Positions 2,280-22,242 of a stretch of DNA of 64,000 nucleotides are shown in pieces. The notes below the pieces were generated by a model. That model was not told the DNA's origin, searched no databases, and saw only the letters and a program-made list of their open reading frames with translations. Positions within the stretch are counted from its first letter, which is position 1. The number at the start of each line of letters is the position of its first letter. The position numbers and the translations under genes were made by a program. The DNA is from an uncultured Bacillota bacterium (GTDB lineage: Bacteria > Bacillota > Clostridia > Christensenellales > UBA1242), in the NCBI GenBank assembly GCA_946499835.1, contig CAMMTJ010000001.1:80879-144878 (forward strand). The letters are read 5' to 3'.

Positions 2280-2306
2280 AAAAAAAAGGCTTATATTTCA
2301 AGCCTT
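2280..2306 (-). terminator. Rho-independent terminator after dnaJ
   Basis: On the minus strand, AAGGCTT-GAAATAT-AAGCCTT hairpin followed by a T-run, directly after the dnaJ stop. Confidence 0.6.
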
Positions 2307-3431
2307 TTATTTTGAATTTTTCAAGAAATTTGAATATTTTGGATAAGAATTTTCACCAAGTGCTGATGAAATTTCTTCAAGTTTTGCTTTTGTTTGTTTA
2401 TCCAGTGTTCTTGGCGCTTCCGCTTTGATCGTGACAAGCATGTCACCATAACTTTCACGATTAAGCACTTTGACGCCTCTGCCTTTAAGACGCATAACCG
2501 TTCCACTTGCAGTAAGTTCTGGAATTGTGAGCAAATATTTGCCTTTAAGAGTTGGAATTTCCACCTTTCCACCAAGGATGGTTGTTGTGAAAGGAAGATA
2601 GAGATCAAGCAGTATGTCTGTGCCACGCCTTACAAGCACCTTGTGAGGTTTGACAGAAATACGCACATTAAGATCGCCGTTGACACCTTCTCTCGTTGGA
2701 GCATTTCCCTCACCCCTCATGCGAAGAGTTTGTCCATCATCAATTCCAGCAGGCACTTTGACCTTGACTGTCTTTGTGCCTCTGTTGTAACCCTTTCCTC
2801 CACAATCAGGACATTTTTCCTTGATGATTTTTCCAGTTGCGTTACATTTTGGACAACCTGCTTCACGAATAGTTGTGCCAAACATGGTGTTTTGTTGAAA
2901 TCTGACCCTTCCTGTTCCACGACATTCAGGACAGGTGGTAAACTCTTTCCCATTTTTTGCACCTGTGCCTTTGCAAGATGAACAACTTTCTATCTTTGAA
3001 AGAGTTATGTTTTTCTCACAACCAAAACATGCTTCTTCAAAAGTCAAAGTCATATCGACAATGATATCTTGTCCACGTTCTTGCACTCTGGCAGATGTTC
3101 CACCGCCACCAAAAGCAGAAAAAATGTCAGAAAAAATATCAGAAAAGCCTCCGCCACCGCCAAAGAAATCACCAAAACCGCCACCAGCACTGCTTCCGCC
3201 ACCAAAAGGATTCCCTTCGGCAGAGCCAAACTGGTCATAGTTTGCTCTCTTTTTTGGATCGCCAAGCACCTCATAGGCTTCGTTGATTTCCTTAAACTTG
3301 CTTGCGGCCTCTTCTGTTTTGTTAAGATCTGGATGATATTTTTTTGCAAGCCTTCGGTATGCCGATTTTATCTCGTCCTCGCTTGCGCTCTTATCAACTC
3401 CCAAAATTTTATAATAATCTTTGTTTGCCAT
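2307..3431 (-). CDS. dnaJ: Molecular chaperone DnaJ
   Basis: J-domain HPD (KKYHPDLN), G/F-rich linker, four CxxCxGxG repeats ([32 protein letters not shown]). Follows dnaK. Confidence 0.97.
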
Positions 3432-3504: not shown

Positions 3505-5334
3505 TTATTCAACATCAACTACTGGATCTTCCCCATTGTTTCCGTCATTTCCGTTTGGAGCAGAGCCGTCACCATTTGGAGTTGTTCCATTTGGGTTTTG
3601 AGATTGATACATCTTGCTTACAATGCCATTTGATGCATTTGTGAGTTCATCAATCGCCTTCTTGATCACTTCAATGTCTTCGCTCTCAAAATCTTTCTTT
3701 GCTTTTTCGATTGCTTCTTGAAGATTTTTCTTGTCTTCTTCGCTTATCTTGTCGCCATTGTCTTTGAGCATTTTTTCAAGCCCATAAACAAGGTTGTCTG
3801 CTTGATTTTTTGTTTCAACAAGTTCTTTTCTCTTCTTGTCTTCCTCAGCGTGAGCCTCAGCCTCTTTGATTGCTCTTTCGATATCTTCTTCTTTAAGGTT
3901 TGAAGAAGCAGTGATTGTGATGTTTTGTTCTTTGTTTGTGCCAAGGTCTTTTGCAGAAACTTTTACAATACCGTTTGCATCAATATCAAATGTTACTTCG
4001 ATTTGAGGAACGCCTCTTGGTGCAGGTGGAATATCTGTAAGTTGGAATCTTCCAAGAGTCTTGTTTTGAGCAGCAAATTCACGTTCACCTTGAAGAACAT
4101 GGATATCAACACCTGGTTGATTGTCAACTGCGGTTGAGAAGATTTGTGATTTTCTTGTAGGAATTGTTGTGTTTCTTTCAATAAGTTTTGTAAATACTCC
4201 GCCGAGTGTCTCAATACCAAGAGAAAGTGGAGTTACATCAAGAAGAAGCACGTCTTTTACTTCTCCGCCAAGAACGCCCGCTTGAATTGCGGCACCGATA
4301 GCAACACATTCATCTGGGTTAATGCCTTTGTATGGCTCTTTGCCTGTGAATGATTTAACTGCTTCTTGAACGGCAGGAATACGAGTTGAACCACCAACAA
4401 GAACGACTTTGTCAATTTGCTCTTTGTCAAGTTTAGCGTCAGCAAGTGCTCTTACTGTGCAATCGATTGTTTCCTTAACAAGATCTTCTGTGATTTGGTC
4501 AAATTTTGCACGAGTAAGTTCATATTCCATATGTTTTGGGCCAGTTGCATCAGCAGAAATGAAAGGAAGTGAAATTGTTGTTTTTGGTGTTGCTGAAAGG
4601 TCAATTTTTGCCTTTTCTGCGGCTTCTTTGAGTCTTTGCATTGCAAGTTTGTCTTGTGTAAGGTCAATGTTGTTTGTTGCCTTAAATTCTTCAACCAAGA
4701 GGTCAATGATACGATTGTCGAAGTCATCGCCACCAAGACGAGTGTTACCATTTGTTGAAAGAACTTCAAATACGCCATCACCAATTTCAAGGATAGAAAC
4801 GTCGAATGTTCCACCACCAAGGTCATAAACCAAAATCTTTTGGTTTGCATTTTCACCTTTGTCAAGTCCATAAGCAAGTGCAGCAGCGGTAGGCTCATTG
4901 ATAATTCTGAGCACTTCAAGACCAGCGATTTTGCCGGCATCTTTTGTTGCTTGACGTTGTGAGTCATTGAAGTATGCAGGAACTGTGATAACGGCTTGTG
5001 TTACCGCTCCGCCAAGGTAACTTTCAGCATCTGCTTTAAGTTTTGAAAGGATCATTGCAGAAATTTCTTGTGGAGTGTATTCCTTTCCGTTGAGTTTAAC
5101 CTTGTAGTTTGTTCCCATCTCTCTTTTGATAGATTGAACAGTGTTGTCAGCATTGACAATGGCTTGACGTTTTGCCACTTTGCCGACAAGTCTTTCGCCT
5201 TCCTTTGTGTAGGCTACAACAGAAGGAGTTGTTCTGTCCCCTTCTGCATTGGCAATAACGGTTGGTTTTCCGCCTTCCATAACTGCCACACATGAATTTG
5301 TTGTTCCTAAGTCAATTCCAATAATTTTTCCCAT
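3505..5334 (-). CDS. dnaK: Molecular chaperone DnaK (Hsp70)
   Basis: GIDLGTTNS and DLGGGTFD motifs, 609 aa, SD GGAGG upstream, grpE-dnaK-dnaJ synteny. Confidence 0.98.
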
Positions 5335-5338
5335 AATT

Positions 5339-6046
5339 TTAATCCTCCTTTTTATTGACTATGACTTTTGCGTAACGAATAACTTTACCGCCAAATGTGT
5401 ATCCTGCCTGATATTCATCTAGGATAACATCATTTTCTTTTTCTTCATCTCTCATAACGGCGATAACATTATGAAGATGTGGGTTGTAAATTTGTCCGAT
5501 TGACTCAATTTTTTCAACGCCGAGGCTTTCAAGTGCTTGAACAATTTTTTCTTCAATCATCTCAACGCCTTCCAAGATTTTTTCATCACTTATCATCTTT
5601 TTCGCCTCTTTGAAGGTGTCAAGACATGGCAAGAACACTTCTATCACTGACGCCTGACCTGCCACTCTTGCATTTTTGACATCTTCCCCAGCATGTCTGC
5701 GAAAGTTTTCAAAGTCGGCTTGAATTTGTTTTGCAAGAAGCAGATATTGTTCGCTCTTATCCTCAGTCTTTTTGATCTCTTCTTCATGCTCATCACAACC
5801 GCAACATTCAAACATCTCTTCCTTTTCATCATGGCAATGATCGCATTCGCATTCATCATCGCAGTGACAGTCTTCACAATCACATTCATGATCTTCGCCA
5901 TGGCAAGAGCAATGTCCTTCTTTGCAATGACAATCATCCTTGCATTTGTCATGTTCATCACAATGGCAATCTTTTTCGCAATGGCATTCGTCATCACAAT
6001 CATCGCAGTGGCAATGTTTTTTGAATTTCTCTTCTTCCTTTGACAA
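5339..6046 (-). CDS. grpE: Nucleotide exchange factor GrpE with an atypical Cys/His-rich N-terminal extension
   Basis: The C-terminal ~140 aa are GrpE-like ([12 protein letters not shown]..., [12 protein letters not shown]) and the gene sits between hrcA and dnaK. TTG start at 6046 with AAGGAGA 8 nt upstream, inside the hrcA 3' end. Confidence 0.9.
5786..6016 (-). other. Low-complexity coding segment: CxC/HCxC-repeat (metallothionein-like) region of GrpE
   Basis: GrpE residues 11-87 contain 22 Cys and 13 His; the rest is almost all D/E/K. The only hydrophobic residues in the stretch are M78 and F79. Units: HCHC, CHC, CSC, CDC, CEC, CCGC. Confidence 0.85.
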
Positions 6047-6050
6047 TGGC

Positions 6051-7049
6051 CTAATCTCCTTTTATATTTTTCAGTCCATCAACCACAACTTTAAGCGCAG
6101 AGGCTATGCCTGCATAGTCCATTCGCTGTGGACCAATCACACCAATGGAAGCAAGTTGTTTTCCTTGCACACAAATTGGTGCTCTCACCACAGAAACCTG
6201 TTCTCCCTCACCGACATCAACCTCAATGTTGCCTTGTTTGTTTTCAATCTTCAAAGCATCTTGAAGTTTTTCCTCGTCGTCAAGAATTGACAGAACCTTC
6301 TTCGCCTCTTCAATGTTGCCGTTGTTTTCAAGCAGTTTGGCACTGCCCTCACGGCGCACATCAAGCAGTTTTTGGTGATTGATTTTTTTAAGACCACCAA
6401 CAAGGGTGTCAACAATTTTTTGGAAGGCTTTGATTTCACCATGCATACCGCTTTTGAATTGGTCAATGTTTTCAATCATAAAGCCAATTGTTTCGCCCTT
6501 GAAATTTTTGGTGAGATAGTTTGACGCATCTTGGCAGTCGCTCGCATCGGCATGCAAGTCAATGGTGTCTGTGATGTAACCTGCGCTCGTGCCAATAAGC
6601 ACCATGATTTTCTCTTCCAAAAGAGGAATGATTTTGATATCTTGCAAGATAAGATCCTCAATGCTGTCAAGCATAACAACCGTTGGATAGTTTGTTGCTT
6701 TGCTGACAATTTTTGCAATGCCAGAAATGATATCAGTCAAACTCTTTGTCTTTGAAGATATCAAATCTTTGACCTCATCAAGTTCGCTATCCGTTGCCTC
6801 CACCCCTTGGAGCAGATTTTCAACATAATAACGATAACCTTGTGGCGTTGGCACCCTTCCACCAGAAGTGTGAAGTTGCCTTAGATAGCCCATTGCTTCC
6901 AAAGTGTTAAGTTCACTTCGCAAAGTGGCAGTTGAACACCCAAGGTCAGTGACATCTTTTATGCCACCACTTGTGATGGGTGCACAATCTTTGATATACT
7001 CTTCCACAGCCATGCAAAGTATCTTTTTTCTTCTTTCAGAAAGTTGCAT
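6051..7049 (-). CDS. hrcA: Heat-inducible transcription repressor HrcA
   Basis: Winged-helix N-terminus (MQLSERRKKILCMAVEEYI...) and HrcA C-domain, first gene of the hrcA-grpE-dnaK-dnaJ operon. Start moved to ATG 7049 (SD GGTGAG); the track start at 7079 would overlap the CIRCE element. Confidence 0.93.
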   Translation of the reverse strand: MQLSERRKKILCMAVEEYIKDCAPITSGGIKDVTDLGCSTATLRSELNTLEAMGYLRQLHTSGGRVPTPQGYRYYVENLLQGVEATDSELDEVKDLISSKTKSLTDIISGIAKIVSKATNYPTVVMLDSIEDLILQDIKIIPLLEEKIMVLIGTSAGYITDTIDLHADASDCQDASNYLTKNFKGETIGFMIENIDQFKSGMHGEIKAFQKIVDTLVGGLKKINHQKLLDVRREGSAKLLENNGNIEEAKKVLSILDDEEKLQDALKIENKQGNIEVDVGEGEQVSVVRAPICVQGKQLASIGVIGPQRMDYAGIASALKVVVDGLKNIKGD

Positions 7050-7072
7050 TTTCTCACCTTTTTTCGACTTTG

Positions 7073-7099
7073 TTGGCACTCTTTTGTTTTAAGTGCTAG
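7073..7099 (-). promoter_or_regulatory. CIRCE operator (HrcA binding site)
   Basis: The minus strand reads CTAGCACTT-N9-GAGTGCCAA against consensus TTAGCACTC-N9-GAGTGCTAA (15/18). It lies between the promoter and the hrcA start. Confidence 0.8.
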
Positions 7100-7103
7100 C
7101 ACT

Positions 7104-7132
7104 ATTATATGCAGTTTTGAAAAAATAGTCAA
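7104..7132 (-). promoter_or_regulatory. SigA-type promoter of the hrcA operon
   Basis: Minus strand TTGACT (7132-7127), N17, TATAAT (7109-7104), immediately upstream of CIRCE. Confidence 0.6.
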
Positions 7133-8429: not shown

Positions 8430-9191
8430 TTATTTCTCCTTTTCACTATTTTCTGTTTCTGTGGTAAGAGTATTTTGTTTTTCCACTTTTGAAGAAGACT
8501 TGTTCCAGTTTATAAGTCCAAAAATGTTTGATATTGTGTAGATTATAAGCACAGCAAGCATTGGCATTGTTTCAAAGTTTGCACTCTGCCCTTCAACGAT
8601 AGGCAAAAGCCAAATAAGAAACATAAACACATTTGAAAACATAAAGCACACAAATGAAATAGGGCTTTTTCTCATAACAAGATAATTGGCCATCGTGGAA
8701 AAGAAACCACATATGCTGGCAAATAAGACGTAAGGGGTGTTAAAATAACGAAGAACAAAGAAAAATCCAATTCCAACTGCAAGAGAAACGCAAATCAAAA
8801 TTGTCCATTCTTTCCAGCCAATTTTGTGACTCTTGACAGTAAGCCCTTGTTCGCTTTTGCCACGAAACCAGTTGACGAGGGCAAGTATTAAAAGTGGCAA
8901 GACAATTGCAACATTGAGTATAAATTCGCCCCAGTTGTTGTAAAGAGCAGATTGAACGATATATAGGATACATTGAATAAGCCCAAAAATGATAGCAACT
9001 TTGAATTGTTCTGCCAAAAAACCTACATAAAGTATGGCAAAAATTGAAAAAATGATGGTCAAAGCCGAACTTTTTGCTATTATTGACAAAACAATCACTG
9101 CAACAAGTCCAATACTTATATAGGCAATTTCATACCACTTAAATCTTGCAAACATTTCTTGCAACTGCTTTGAAAAGTCAATCTTTTTCAT
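8430..9191 (-). CDS. Polytopic membrane protein, PnuC-like (nicotinamide riboside transporter family)
   Basis: About 7 predicted TM helices. W-containing loops (NWFRG, GLINWNK) and an MRK...N segment resemble PnuC; assignment is from motif memory only. Confidence 0.5.
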   Translation of the reverse strand: MKKIDFSKQLQEMFARFKWYEIAYISIGLVAVIVLSIIAKSSALTIIFSIFAILYVGFLAEQFKVAIIFGLIQCILYIVQSALYNNWGEFILNVAIVLPLLILALVNWFRGKSEQGLTVKSHKIGWKEWTILICVSLAVGIGFFFVLRYFNTPYVLFASICGFFSTMANYLVMRKSPISFVCFMFSNVFMFLIWLLPIVEGQSANFETMPMLAVLIIYTISNIFGLINWNKSSSKVEKQNTLTTETENSEKEK

Positions 9192-12307: not shown

Positions 12308-13082
12308 CGCTAACAAAGGCTTCATCCACAATTTTATCAATGTCAAAAGGTTTGTTTTGCCCGTTGATGTGGAAAAGATATTCAATATTTCCGCTCTTTC
12401 CCTTGATTGGTGAATAAGTAAGATTTGAAATATTTAGCCCATTTTCACTGACAAACTTTTCAAATTCTTTCAAAAGTCTTTTATGAAGAGCCTTATCCTT
12501 TATCACGCCCTTGCACTTTTTTGCAATGGCCATACCACATTCAAACTGAGGCTTGAAAAGCATACAAATCTCGATATTATTTCCAAAGAGCTCAATTATT
12601 CTCGGCAAAATGAGTTTAAGTGAAATGAAAGACAAGTCTCCTATGATCATATTTGCATCTTTGCATAAATTTTTATCTATCAAGCGAAAGTCTTGTCCTT
12701 CCAAGTTGACAACCCTTTCATCTTGCCTAAGAGAAGGCGCAAGTTCACCTTTGCCAACATCTATGGCATAAACTTTTTTTGCCCCATTTTTAAGCGCAAA
12801 GTCAGTGAAGCCACCAGTCGATGCACCAATATCAACAACCACCTTTCCTTCAAATGAGAGGTCAAACACTTGGTATGCCCTCTTGATCTTGAAGGCACCA
12901 CGCGAAACATATTCTTCTGCTGGCAGAACAGTTATCTCTTCTCCTTCCACCAAAAAAGAAGGCTTTGAAACAACCTTGCCTCGCACCAAAACACGTCCAC
13001 TTTTGATTGTCTGCACCGCCTTTTCTCTTGAAGAGCAATCGCCTCTTGCAACCAGAAATTGGTCAAGTCTAACTTTTTCCAT
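12291..13082 (-). CDS. tlyA: TlyA-family rRNA 2'-O-methyltransferase
   Basis: S4-like N-terminus (RLDQFLVARG) and FtsJ-type SAM motif VVDIGASTGGFTD. Confidence 0.85.
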   Translation of the reverse strand: MEKVRLDQFLVARGDCSSREKAVQTIKSGRVLVRGKVVSKPSFLVEGEEITVLPAEEYVSRGAFKIKRAYQVFDLSFEGKVVVDIGASTGGFTDFALKNGAKKVYAIDVGKGELAPSLRQDERVVNLEGQDFRLIDKNLCKDANMIIGDLSFISLKLILPRIIELFGNNIEICMLFKPQFECGMAIAKKCKGVIKDKALHKRLLKEFEKFVSENGLNISNLTYSPIKGKSGNIEYLFHINGQNKPFDIDKIVDEAFVSAKKEV

Positions 13083-13162
13083 GTTTTAATTTTAACATAA
13101 AAAAGTGGATAAAAAAAGAAAAAAGCCTGTTTTTTCAGGCTTTTTATTTGTTTTTTAGAAAA

Positions 13163-17351: not shown

Positions 17352-17378
17352 ACAAAAAAATGAGGACTTTCTCCTCAT
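17352..17378 (-). terminator. Terminator of plsY (hairpin begins at the stop codon)
   Basis: The minus strand reads aTGAGGA-GAAAG-TCCTCAt followed by T7. The TGA stop is part of the stem. Confidence 0.7.
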
Positions 17379-18154
17379 TCTTTTTTATCTTCTTTATCCT
17401 CTTGGCTTGAAGAATTTTCCTCTTCAATCACGATCTCTTGCTCAGGCTTTGTTTCTACTTGGTCTTCGCTTATAATCTCCTCACCTTTCTTATGGCAAAA
17501 ACATTCTTTAAGTTTTTGTTTGAAATCAATCTTGTTTTCACATTTGTGGAAAAGTCTATAAATATTTGCATGGTGTTTTGCAAATGTGAGTGCCACCAAA
17601 AACCAAATGATTGCAGTGACTGCCCATGCCAAAGGAAAAGTGGCAAACACCCATGTGTAAATTGTGTATGCAATGGCCATGCCTGTGATGAACATAAACG
17701 AGGCAACAGAACCATATCCAATAAAGTAGAAAATGGTCGCACAAAGAATAAGCCATATAAGTCCAACCCAGCCTATTTGACTGAAAAGAAAGATGCCCAC
17801 AAAACAAGCAACGCCTTTTCCACCCTTAAATTTTGACCAAACAGGGAAATCATTGCCAAGCATAAGAAAAAGCCCACTAAACCAATAAGCCACTTCTCCA
17901 TAACCCAAAGTATGATCCATCACAATCTTGACAATAAGTGCAGTAAGTCCTGCCTTTATAACTTCTGCAATCAAGGTAAAAAGTGCCAGTTTGAAACCAA
18001 AAGAGCGAAGCATATTCATTGTTCCAGGATTGCCACTGCCAACTTTGGTGATGTCCTTTCGTCTTGCGTTCCACGCTATAATTTTTGAAAAGTTGACCGT
18101 TCCAATCAAATATGAGATGATTGCTATCAAGACAAATGCCACTGCTATGCTCAT
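17375..18154 (-). CDS. plsY: Glycerol-3-phosphate acyltransferase PlsY with an acidic C-terminal extension
   Basis: GSGNPGTMN motif and PlsY TM pattern. About 60 extra C-terminal residues. ATGA overlap with the der stop. Confidence 0.9.
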   Translation of the reverse strand: MSIAVAFVLIAIISYLIGTVNFSKIIAWNARRKDITKVGSGNPGTMNMLRSFGFKLALFTLIAEVIKAGLTALIVKIVMDHTLGYGEVAYWFSGLFLMLGNDFPVWSKFKGGKGVACFVGIFLFSQIGWVGLIWLILCATIFYFIGYGSVASFMFITGMAIAYTIYTWVFATFPLAWAVTAIIWFLVALTFAKHHANIYRLFHKCENKIDFKQKLKECFCHKKGEEIISEDQVETKPEQEIVIEEENSSSQEDKEDKKE

Positions 18155-20139: not shown

Positions 20140-22242
20140 TTATTTTTCATGACGATTACACTTTTTTCCGCATTTGTTTTTGTAGGGACAATACCTTTTC
20201 TTTTTTACCGACTTCCACACAAAAATGACAGAAAAGAGTATAAGCAAGATTGAGCCAACAAATATAAGCACACTCCACAGTCCAAACACTTCAAAAGCAC
20301 GTCCAAAATTGAAGACCACAAAGGCTAAAATATAGGCAACGACAAATTCTATAAGCGCTCCAATGCAAGCCCATTTTTTGCCTATTTCTTTGCACAAAAC
20401 TGAAAATGTGGCAAGGCAAGGAAAATAGAGAAGAGCAAAAACCAGAAAGGCAAGCACGGCAGATTGCGAAGAGAAATGTACAGGGTTTTGTGGATCAAAG
20501 AGTGAAAGCCCAATTGCCAAGCCTTCCACTCCATTGAACATACCAATTGAAGAGACAATGACTTCTTTCGCCACCAAGCCAGCAATAAGGGCAGAAACAA
20601 TCCCCCAACTTCCAAAGCCAAGTGGAGTGAAAATTGGTGCAAGCAACCTGCCAAATGTTTCAAGCATGCTCACTCCGCCACTTTTAGGCGTGTAAGAAAA
20701 AGTTATTGTAAAACTTGAAAGAACCCACACAATGATGTTCATTGCCACAATAAGCGTTCCCACACGTGACAGGAAAAGAAGACAGTTTTGCCAGAGGACA
20801 GAGAACACCCTTTTTGCATTCATCATTCTATAAGGTGGAAATTCTAAGATAAAAGTCTGACCCTTGCTTTTAAGAATAGTTTTTTCAAAAATATAACTAA
20901 GGACTATGGCAACAACAACTCCCAAGAGATAAAGCCCCATAATGACAAAGATGTTTTTTGCCCCAAAAAATGCACCGCCAATCACCGAATAAATTGGAAA
21001 CTTTGCACTGCAACTCATATATGGAGTCAAAAGTCCGGTCTTGATCTTTGCGTTTGGATCGTCCATATTTCTGGCAGTAAGCACGGCAGTCGTTGAGCAA
21101 CCAAACCCCATGAGAAGAGTATAAACACTTTTGCCTGAAAGTCCAATTTTGCCCAAAATATCTTCAAAAATGAAGGCGATGCGTGCAAGATAACCGCTAT
21201 CTTCAAGAAGTGAGAGGAAGAAAAACAGAAGTGCCACTTGTGGCAAAAAAGCAAGGATTGAGCCAAGTCCACCAACTATTGCAACGCTTGTCAGTCCAAC
21301 AATCCATGAGTCGGCACCAAACTGATTGGTCAGGAAAGAGACAAGCGGATCACCAACAAATTTTTCAAGCAGAAAGGATAACCCGTCACTCAACCACGCT
21401 CCGATTGAAAAAAATGTTAGATAAAAGGTAAGCCCAAGCAGTAATAGAAATATTGGAAGAGCAAGAAACTTGTTCATAAAAATCTTGTCAAGTTTGCTTT
21501 TGCCATAGACATTTTGTTTTGCCGAAATATTTTTGCCAAGCACTTTGTCAATAAAGTCAAACCTCGCCTTTGCAATCTCTTCCACTTTGTCAGGGATAGT
21601 TTTATTGTCAAGCCCAAACTTTTTTGCCACCTCGCCATCACCTTCCAAAAGTTTAAGCGTAAAAAACTCTCTCTCTTTCTCTGGAACTTTTTTCATCTCT
21701 TGCAAAGATGCAACCTTTCCTAAATCAAACTTTGCAAGATATGGCAACTTTTTCTTATCTTTCGCTTTGAAAGAAATGATTGCTTTTTTGAGAGGATCAA
21801 GTGCTTTCTTTTTGTCTGCCTGCAAAAGCACAATAGGACAACCCAGTTCTTTTTCAAGTGAAGAAAAGTTGATTTTGCATGCACCTCGCTTGCCCATACG
21901 ATTGACAGCCAAAATACAGTTGCACCCAGCCTCCAAAAGACAAAGGGTGAGATATAAATTTCTCTGCAAATTGTTTTCATCACAAATATTGACAATCAGC
22001 CTATCTCTGTCTTTTAAGATATAGTCTATTGCCACCTGCTCTTCATAACTCAAACTTGTCAGTGAATAAATTCCTGGCAAATCGGCTATCACAATCTCTT
22101 GCCCCTGAAACTTGAAAGAGCCAACTTTTTCCTCAACCGTCACGCCATGCCAGTTGCCCACATGCTCATGCGCACCAGTAAGAGAATTAAAAAGAGTGGT
22201 CTTGCCAGTATTGGGATTGCCAACCAAATTACACTTTATCAT
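20140..22242 (-). CDS. feoB: Ferrous iron transporter FeoB with a Cys-rich C-terminal tail
   Basis: G-domain GNPNTGKTTLFN and a polytopic C-domain. ATGA overlap with feoA. Tail is ...WKSVKKKRYCPYKNKCGKKCNRHEK. Confidence 0.95.
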   Translation of the reverse strand: MIKCNLVGNPNTGKTTLFNSLTGAHEHVGNWHGVTVEEKVGSFKFQGQEIVIADLPGIYSLTSLSYEEQVAIDYILKDRDRLIVNICDENNLQRNLYLTLCLLEAGCNCILAVNRMGKRGACKINFSSLEKELGCPIVLLQADKKKALDPLKKAIISFKAKDKKKLPYLAKFDLGKVASLQEMKKVPEKEREFFTLKLLEGDGEVAKKFGLDNKTIPDKVEEIAKARFDFIDKVLGKNISAKQNVYGKSKLDKIFMNKFLALPIFLLLLGLTFYLTFFSIGAWLSDGLSFLLEKFVGDPLVSFLTNQFGADSWIVGLTSVAIVGGLGSILAFLPQVALLFFFLSLLEDSGYLARIAFIFEDILGKIGLSGKSVYTLLMGFGCSTTAVLTARNMDDPNAKIKTGLLTPYMSCSAKFPIYSVIGGAFFGAKNIFVIMGLYLLGVVVAIVLSYIFEKTILKSKGQTFILEFPPYRMMNAKRVFSVLWQNCLLFLSRVGTLIVAMNIIVWVLSSFTITFSYTPKSGGVSMLETFGRLLAPIFTPLGFGSWGIVSALIAGLVAKEVIVSSIGMFNGVEGLAIGLSLFDPQNPVHFSSQSAVLAFLVFALLYFPCLATFSVLCKEIGKKWACIGALIEFVVAYILAFVVFNFGRAFEVFGLWSVLIFVGSILLILFSVIFVWKSVKKKRYCPYKNKCGKKCNRHEK

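Follow-up and report, generated by a model that had tools for sequence, protein, structure and literature searches.

What would a nucleotide exchange factor of the DnaK chaperone gain from an N-terminal extension in which more than one residue in four is cysteine? The question is raised by the grpE gene in a 64,000-nucleotide stretch of DNA (hereafter the window) from an uncultured Bacillota bacterium of the Christensenellales (contig CAMMTJ010000001.1, positions 80,879 to 144,878). Comparative evidence indicates that the extension is translated as part of GrpE and conserved for its cysteines, and the same kind of array recurs through a clade of uncultured Clostridia. Its make-up resembles that of metallothioneins, and we hypothesize that it may bind metal on the chaperone machine. 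The parts of the gene, in window coordinates, are as follows.

5339..6046, minus strand: grpE, 235 codons plus stop, TTG start (open reading frame list; Pfam GrpE, 117.8 bits; start shared by orthologues)
6055..6061, minus strand: Shine-Dalgarno sequence AAGGAGA for grpE, within the final hrcA codons (…GGA GAT TAG), identical in the relatives L009 and L010
6017..6046, minus strand: N-terminal leader, GrpE residues 1-10
5786..6016, minus strand: metallothionein-like Cys/His/Asp/Glu array, GrpE residues 11-87, 22 Cys and 13 His
5955..6000, no strand assigned: weak 18-bp (6-codon) periodicity in the array (Tandem Repeats Finder, 2.6 copies, 71% matches, score 57)
5810..5815, minus strand: Met78-Phe79 (KEEMFECC), the sole hydrophobic pair of the array, and also an internal ATG
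5342..5785, minus strand: canonical GrpE body, with a long helix from residue 88, a helical bundle and a beta domain

The cysteine array and its translation

The array is built from very few kinds of residue: 22 Cys, 13 His, 17 Asp, 14 Glu, 5 Lys, 3 Gly, 1 Ser, 1 Met and 1 Phe, with cysteine making up 28.6% (22/77). The cysteines form nine CxC units (five CHC, including HCHC, together with CSC, CDC, CEC and the CGC within CCGC), four CxxC and one CC. Because the 49 large open reading frames of the window average only 1.8% Cys and 1.36% His, the probability of at least 22 cysteines in 77 residues is about 2e-20, and that of at least 13 histidines about 4e-11. An earlier note on this DNA, made from the letters alone, had reported the same Cys and His counts, the CxC units and M78/F79 as the only hydrophobic residues, and a recount agrees with it.

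Translation appears to begin at TTG 6046-6044, behind AAGGAGA at 6061-6055 and an 8-nt spacer (TTAGGCCA). The gap between the hrcA stop and this TTG is four bases, and the TTG, the 8-nt spacer and the placement of AAGGAGA at the end of hrcA match what the note had described. An in-frame TAA lies five codons upstream, and therefore only the TTG (codon 1) or the ATG at codon 78 can start translation before the core. Two close relatives are available as DNA, L010 (protein 97% identical) and L009 (83%), and in both the TTG and the 30 bases upstream of it are the same as in the window. Met78 is Ile in P0002, an 86% identical relative, and the internal ATG is therefore not conserved as a start; in the more distant relatives L002, L006 and L007 the extension opens with ATG behind a strong Shine-Dalgarno sequence. 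We therefore reject Met78 as the general start, although a minor short isoform initiated there in the window strain is conceivable.

The codon-level comparison with L009 likewise indicates that the extension is maintained as protein. Over 94 alignable tail codons (window residues 1-100), 50 are identical, 23 differ synonymously only and 21 change the amino acid. The Nei-Gojobori ratio of nonsynonymous to synonymous change (omega) is 0.046 for the extension (0.12 for its non-Cys codons) and 0.135 for the core. Cysteine is kept in 22 of 23 columns, nine of which differ as TGT versus TGC; the resulting ratio of nine synonymous changes to one non-synonymous change in Cys codons has a P value that ranges from 2e-8 to 3e-4 with the neutral expectation chosen. 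Such a pattern would be very unlikely to arise without selection for cysteine. An alignment of orthologues, which the earlier note had proposed as a check, thus finds the extension conserved and under purifying selection (omega ~0.05), and with the TTG and its ribosome-binding signal kept and Met78 not conserved, the extension is best read as real coding sequence and not as an artefact upstream of an internal start.

The same comparison separates cysteine from histidine. Five of the 13 histidines are replaced or deleted in L009, against one of 23 cysteines. Because histidine is less conserved, we describe the array as Cys-defined rather than Cys/His-defined; the earlier note's "Cys/His-rich" describes the content of the window protein, where both residues are abundant. 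The array also diverges faster at silent sites. At conserved two-fold-degenerate residues, third positions differ in 34% of cases in the extension versus 15% in the core (Fisher P=0.02), and the Nei-Gojobori synonymous divergence (dS) is 2.2 in the Cys array and 0.42 in the core. Candidate causes are a looser constraint on codons, turnover associated with the repeats or an artefact of the method.

The weak 18-bp array at 5955-6000 is the sole DNA-level repeat detected by Tandem Repeats Finder. It therefore reads as an old, diverged 6-codon repeat and not as a slippage artefact, and recent DNA slippage was rejected on this ground. Open reading frames in other frames over the array (5644-6003 minus and 5693-6043 plus) were dismissed: selection acts in the frame of grpE, and codons of low complexity leave such frames open as a by-product. 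A public gene call of 56 aa on a contig from the European Nucleotide Archive (P0121) mixes two frames of this grpE region, an instance of the low-complexity array provoking assembly or frameshift errors in some datasets.

The remainder of the protein is an ordinary GrpE, as the note had stated. It matches PF01025 over residues 77-232 with 117.8 bits, where the gathering score is 25.8. In an AlphaFold2 model built from a 91-sequence alignment, the GrpE fold starts at residue 88 (helix 88-151, helix 155-175, six strands), and the predicted local distance difference test score (pLDDT) is ~70 over residues 91-100, rising to ~90 or more beginning with residue 101. Foldseek returns 13 solved GrpE/GrpEL1 chains (E 6e-13 to 5e-5, target-normalized template modelling score up to 0.82). 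The best NCBIfam model, NF010738, scores 102.5 bits and does not reach its equivalog cut-off of 137; since the PRK models are lineage-specific, this shortfall reflects divergence from the modelled lineages and does not speak against GrpE identity.

Residues 1-87, by comparison, have pLDDT <50 and no predicted secondary structure, which is as might be expected for an apo-metallothionein. No Pfam or NCBIfam family matches residues 1-99 at E<=1, no HSP33 match was found in Pfam, where GrpE alone was detected, and a phmmer search of the PDB with the module returned solely chance LDL-receptor class A repeats. A homologue search with the array alone at E<=10 gave seven candidates, with P0121 as the sole hit, a result made uninformative by composition filtering. 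The module has several hallmarks of metallothioneins, namely a Cys content within their range of about 15-33%, CxC, CC and CxxC motifs, and few aromatic or hydrophobic residues; to this extent the metallothionein-type composition claimed by the earlier note is borne out. However, it is not a free-standing protein of <10 kDa and has no homology to a recognised metallothionein family, and it is therefore named metallothionein-like here and not a member of such a family. Nor is it His-dominated like the tails of HspA, SlyD or HypB, with 13 His against 22 Cys in the window and 7% against 28% across the clade.

Distribution and anatomy among relatives

A whole-protein search returned 909 hits, of which the best 120 cluster representatives were examined. 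At least six cysteines precede the core in 115 of these 120 (median 18). A second search was seeded from L007 (45% identity), the most distant Cys-rich relative found in genomes, and it added 106 new representatives, every one of which has 10-33 Cys. In total, 221 of 226 cluster representatives carry the Cys array (6-33 Cys), with tails of 46-135 residues among the Cys-rich ones. Core identity to the window GrpE is 91-99% in P0001-P0003 and 62-82% in more distant relatives, and P0004, as an identical protein, recurs in 133 blocks of the assembly collection. Seven Clostridia genome records hold relatives, all of them metagenome-assembled and titled 'uncultured Eubacteriales bacterium' (from a mouse gut catalogue), 'uncultured Clostridia bacterium', 'uncultured Firmicutes bacterium' or 'uncultured Catabacter sp.'. 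No cultured isolate with a Cys-rich GrpE was found among the relatives recovered. An eighth locus, L008, from a metagenome-assembled Bdellovibrionales genome (30% identity), has an N-terminal region without Cys.

Across these proteins the module has three parts: a short leader, the array (15-121 residues) and a brief connection to the helix. Leaders have a median length of 10 residues, and in 91 of 116 homologues they contain a hydrophobic residue. In 115 homologues, consecutive cysteines are separated by one residue 897 times and by three residues 441 times, and the consensus repeat is C-x-C-[G/D/S]-[E/D]-[D/E/N]-C-x-C. The Cys span in this set averages 28% Cys (28.3%), 30% Asp+Glu, 7% His and 1.5% hydrophobic or aromatic residues. 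The Met78-Phe79 pair of the window is MF or IF in close relatives, and a hydrophobic residue of any kind lies between array and helix in 43 of 116 homologues.

There are two departures from this pattern. The five Cys-poor representatives keep acidic and equally long tails, which are Cys-free in P0102, P0108 and P0116 and contain one Cys in P0103 and P0083. Their cores are 72-78% identical to that of the window, no closer than those of Cys-rich relatives, and in a neighbour-joining tree of the core P0102, P0103, P0108 and P0116 group together while P0083 stands apart. From these sequences the Cys-poor acidic tails read as secondary loss, and these GrpEs are a natural loss-of-module control group. 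In the other departure, relatives of L007 (P0142-P0145) have 10-16 His and fewer Cys, for example HEHEHGEHCKHNHEH, with His outnumbering Cys in P0142 and P0143. These His-dominated tails suggest lineage-specific shifts in metal preference.

The module appears only on GrpE in the DNA that we sampled. It is covalently joined to GrpE in all 221 Cys-rich representatives, and neither a stand-alone copy nor any other real gene with a Cys-dense segment was found in the 64-kb window or in ~205 kb of grpE-centred DNA from relatives. The earlier note had suggested that the organism uses such appendages repeatedly, citing FeoB and PlsY. FeoB (20140-22242) ends in a basic tail with three Cys, KKKRYCPYKNKCGKKCNRHEK, and PlsY (17375-18154) has a C-terminal extension of ~55 residues with three Cys (CENK…ECFCHK) and, after these, a strongly acidic tail. 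Neither tail is metallothionein-like or comparable to that of GrpE, which alone is Cys-dense, and we reject the idea that Cys tails are a habit of the organism.

A scan of metagenome DNA with the back-translated pattern CxCGxxCxCGxxCxC found 120 stretches, almost all of them (GC)n or (TG)n repeats, and no GrpE. A few real Cys-rich open reading frames were among them (L015, L038, L067). In L015 (JGI contig Ga0163151_10000179), a minus-strand frame from 281 encodes a lipoprotein-type signal peptide and an acidic, CxC-rich stretch of ~70 residues, CGDNCPCGDDCQCGDNCDC…, followed by a thioredoxin/redoxin-like part (…NCPYCNDNAP…). By its sequence this would be a bacterial metallothionein-like module fused to a thioredoxin-like domain, reminiscent of TrxMt, the thioredoxin-metallothionein chimera discussed below. 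In L038, a marine metagenome contig, the minus strand at 4101-4217 may encode a stand-alone metallothionein-like peptide of 28 residues, MPKCECGPDCNCGDNCQCTDCECKKEEK.

Operon context and competing explanations

The gene lies in a heat-shock operon, whose other features are as follows.

7104..7132, minus strand: sigma-70-like promoter (TTGACT-17-TATAAT), 11/12 consensus matches, by consensus match only
7073..7099, no strand assigned: CIRCE-like inverted repeat, candidate HrcA operator, TTGGCACTC-N9-AAGTGCTAG
6051..7079, minus strand: hrcA (Pfam HrcA, E=3e-29), start probably ATG 7049
3505..5334, minus strand: dnaK (Pfam HSP70, E=2e-253)
2307..3431, minus strand: dnaJ with a normal CXXCXGXG zinc-finger domain (Pfam DnaJ, DnaJ_C, DnaJ_CXXCXGXG)
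2284..2308, minus strand: terminator-like hairpin and T-run after dnaJ

The listed start of hrcA (GTG 7079) falls inside the CIRCE-like palindrome. Initiation at ATG 7049 (MQLSERRKK…) yields an HrcA of 332 aa, its orthologues being 332-333 aa long, and is probably the real start; it places the repeat between the promoter and hrcA. The order hrcA-grpE-dnaK-dnaJ is also found in L009 and L131-L138. Between dnaK and dnaJ, L009 has an inorganic pyrophosphatase gene (8603-8938) and L131 an isochorismatase-family gene (12595-13098); the window has no extra gene there. Given the gene order and the signals, grpE is probably co-expressed with the heat-shock regulon, a reading that has good support.

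We propose that the module is a stress-inducible, metallothionein-type metal buffer attached to the DnaK machine, a reading that we rank first and regard as equally apt to prove right or wrong. Under this hypothesis, the acidic, disordered N-terminal tail of GrpE would have become, in a clade of uncultured Clostridia, a module of ~80 residues with repeated C-x-C-x3-C-x-C units amid Asp, Glu and His. Unstructured on its own, it would wrap several thiophilic ions, Zn(II) and/or Cu(I) (and Cd if present), as metal-thiolate clusters. By the known stoichiometry of metallothioneins, 22 Cys together with His could hold ~6-8 M(II) or ~10-12 Cu(I) per chain, and double that per GrpE dimer. Because grpE belongs to a promoter-CIRCE-hrcA-grpE-dnaK-dnaJ operon, the module would be made whenever proteotoxic stress induces the chaperones, including metal-induced misfolding and the release of zinc from damaged proteins. 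In other words, the cell would gain a metal buffer physically tethered to its DnaK machine. We infer metal binding, the choice of metal and the buffering role from the sequence; the CxC spacing and the His-rich variants favour metal ligation over pure disulfide chemistry, and H. pylori GroES/HspA and the thioredoxin-metallothionein chimera are precedents for metal modules on stress proteins.

Several observations weigh against this proposal. No Pfam metallothionein family matched the window GrpE, and Metallothio_PEC, _2, _Euk and _5 each had one match among 91 relatives, all sub-threshold (E 0.015-0.03). A phmmer search of residues 1-99 against 1.84 billion representatives recovered P0121 only; it is uninformative because composition correction hides real relatives, but no relatives were found with the module alone, so the assignment rests on composition and motif. 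The operon signals are imperfect as well: the CIRCE-like repeat has three mismatches to TTAGCACTC-N9-GAGTGCTAA, with at least one match in 5 of 100 shuffles, and the promoter is a mere consensus match. In one sub-clade the cysteines were lost and the acidic tail kept, so the module is dispensable in some lineages. Finally, buffering alone gives no reason why the module should be attached to GrpE instead of being a free protein.

This last difficulty would disappear if the array were a regulatory switch, a less likely possibility that we rank second, in which metal loading, or loss of the metal on oxidation, gates GrpE by changing the length or freedom of its tail. The clusters could hide or expose a hydrophobic motif (M78-F79) that binds the substrate-binding domain of DnaK, or metal could bridge the two parallel tails of the dimer, clamp the helices and shift the thermosensor transition; either way, substrate release from DnaK or nucleotide exchange would become metal- or redox-dependent. 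The tails of E. coli GrpE bind the DnaK substrate site via an acid-flanked hydrophobic motif (PMC12915176), and KEEMFE in the window array fits such a pattern, with MF or IF kept in close relatives. KEEMFE lies between the Cys clusters 66/68/71 and 81/82/84, and the patch could therefore be buried or displayed as clusters form; by analogy, Met78-Phe79 is a candidate equivalent of the hydrophobic motif of GrpE tails that binds the substrate-binding domain. The module occupies the tail position where the substrate-release function resides, which would explain its fusion to GrpE alone, and redox-sensitive GrpE-like factors do exist (GrpEL2 Cys87). However, the MF pair is not conserved clade-wide: a hydrophobic residue between array and helix is present in only 43 of 116 homologues, and in 91 of 116 it is the leader that contains one. 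An array whose length varies between 15 and 121 residues also seems loosely defined for a precise switch. The cysteines might alternatively act without metal, as a sacrificial antioxidant or as a disulfide sensor of oxygen or reactive oxygen species in a strict anaerobe, following the logic of Hsp33 without a defined zinc centre. The very high Cys density, gut anaerobes as hosts (judging by the titles of the relatives' records) and the oxidation-sensitive nucleotide exchange factors of mitochondria would all suit this explanation, which we nevertheless think unlikely: cysteines spaced as CxC, joint enrichment in His, Asp and Glu, and His-rich variants are a signature of metal ligation, disulfide switches usually employ CxxC, and vicinal CxC disulfides are strained.

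Metal could also be bound for delivery instead of buffering. The tail would then be a metallochaperone or store for Ni, Co or Fe, of the HspA/SlyD/HypB kind, feeding hydrogenase, carbon monoxide dehydrogenase or other metalloenzymes, or else an Fe-S-binding tail. A heat-shock co-chaperone with a Ni-binding His/Cys tail provides the precedent, the window variant and P0142-P0145 are His-rich, and feoB is in the same window, though 14 kb away. We consider this quite improbable, since His is a minor component (7%) and poorly conserved across the clade while Cys is invariant, genes for Ni enzymes or their maturation are absent within 10 kb of grpE, both in L131-L138 and around the window gene, and the spacing of the array cysteines is unlike that of Fe-S motifs. 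That the extension has no specific function, whether as untranslated sequence upstream of a Met78 start, a low-complexity spacer that drifts, or an artefact of assembly or slippage, appears very improbable. One could point to the weak TTG start codon, the purine-rich AAGGAAGAG that precedes ATG78, a low-complexity region open in all frames and the existence of a frameshifted assembly of it (P0121). Against these stand the omega of ~0.05 with nine synonymous Cys-codon changes, the Ile at position 78 of P0002, the many lineages that use ATG and a strong Shine-Dalgarno sequence, the single weak 18-bp array, and the presence of the trait in independent assemblies and more than 200 clusters, with P0004 alone in 133 blocks.

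Novelty and known systems

The note's remark that it knew of no described GrpE with such a module agrees with our full-text literature searches, which found no description of a Cys-rich or metal-binding GrpE. In a 2025 review of GrpE-like factors (PMC12987570) the words 'metal' and 'zinc' never occur, and cysteine is mentioned solely for GrpEL2. The sequences of the relatives are public and annotated only as 'nucleotide exchange factor GrpE'. Bacterial metallothioneins are deemed rare and mostly known from cyanobacteria, pseudomonads and mycobacteria, according to PMC13578184; in the present case, more than 200 sequence clusters from abundant, uncultured Clostridia of the gut have a metallothionein-like module as a fixed part of a heat-shock protein that is both essential and highly expressed. 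If metal binding proves true, it would link proteostasis to Zn/Cu handling in gut anaerobes, and biotechnology might find a use for the module as a compact, acidic tag that binds metal.

What the N-terminal tail of GrpE does is a matter of current research, and the displacement of substrate from DnaK by the tail was pinned to a hydrophobic motif only in 2026 (PMC12915176). The clade offers a natural experiment on this question, having a tail rebuilt as a putative metal array alongside a sister sub-clade without Cys, which brings the role of the tail within reach of direct tests on recombinant proteins. Among gut Clostridia, a large clade may even have wired its Hsp70 cycle to metal or redox status through a GrpE tail that folds around metal and unfolds or cross-links on its loss or on oxidation. 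We offer this as speculation that is doubtful as it stands; if true, it would define a new class of ligand-gated nucleotide exchange factor and by far the largest metallothionein-type domain family known in Firmicutes.

Among known proteins, the metallothioneins are like the module in composition (plant types 1 and 2, fungal Cu-metallothioneins, bacterial SmtA/BmtA and MymT). The module shares with them ~28% Cys, the CxC, CC and CxxC motifs, a paucity of aromatic and hydrophobic residues, a size of ~8-10 kDa and the absence of predicted structure without metal, and the repeat CxC-G-x-x-CxC resembles plant (type 1/2, CxCGxxCxC) and fungal metallothionein motifs. It differs in being an N-terminal domain of GrpE, in its far greater acidity (~30% Asp+Glu) and in lacking a Pfam metallothionein match. 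SlyD, a peptidyl-prolyl isomerase and chaperone, has a disordered C-terminal metal-binding tail rich in acidic residues, His and Cys (His/Cys/Asp/Glu) and is tied to Ni insertion into hydrogenase; it belongs to another protein family, and its tail position and Ni-hydrogenase link set it apart. Cysteine or zinc chemistry also controls chaperone or exchange-factor activity in Hsp33 (a Zn-Cys4 switch) and in yeast Mge1. GrpEL2 is redox-sensitive at Cys87 (PMC12987570). Each of these three has one defined site, whereas the GrpE module is a multi-cluster array without similarity to Hsp33.

As precedents, the His/Cys tail of H. pylori GroES and the 2026 thioredoxin-metallothionein chimera come closest. 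H. pylori HspA is a GroES with a His/Cys-rich C-terminal nickel-binding tail (e.g. PMC5116745 and PMC7585873), and thus likewise a heat-shock co-chaperone with an appended metal-binding tail. That tail is C-terminal on GroES, short, His-dominated, Ni-specific and confined to Helicobacter, whereas the GrpE module is N-terminal, 46-135 residues long, Cys-dominated and spread across a large clade of Clostridia. TrxMt of Runella aurantiaca similarly joins a bacterial metallothionein-type domain to a proteostasis or redox protein, and the recombinant protein binds heavy metals and raises the metal tolerance of E. coli (PMC13578184); its partner is a thioredoxin, its host belongs to another phylum, and it is a single characterised protein as opposed to a clade-wide trait. 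The counterpart by position is the tail of GrpE itself. In E. coli, a hydrophobic motif (IIM) with acidic flanks binds to the substrate site of DnaK and makes substrate release faster (PMC12915176), and the tail of the window protein lies in the same place, is likewise acidic and has a hydrophobic patch flanked by Glu (EEMFE here versus IIM). Canonical tails are ~30-40 residues long and Cys-free, whereas that of the window protein has ~87 residues and 22 Cys.

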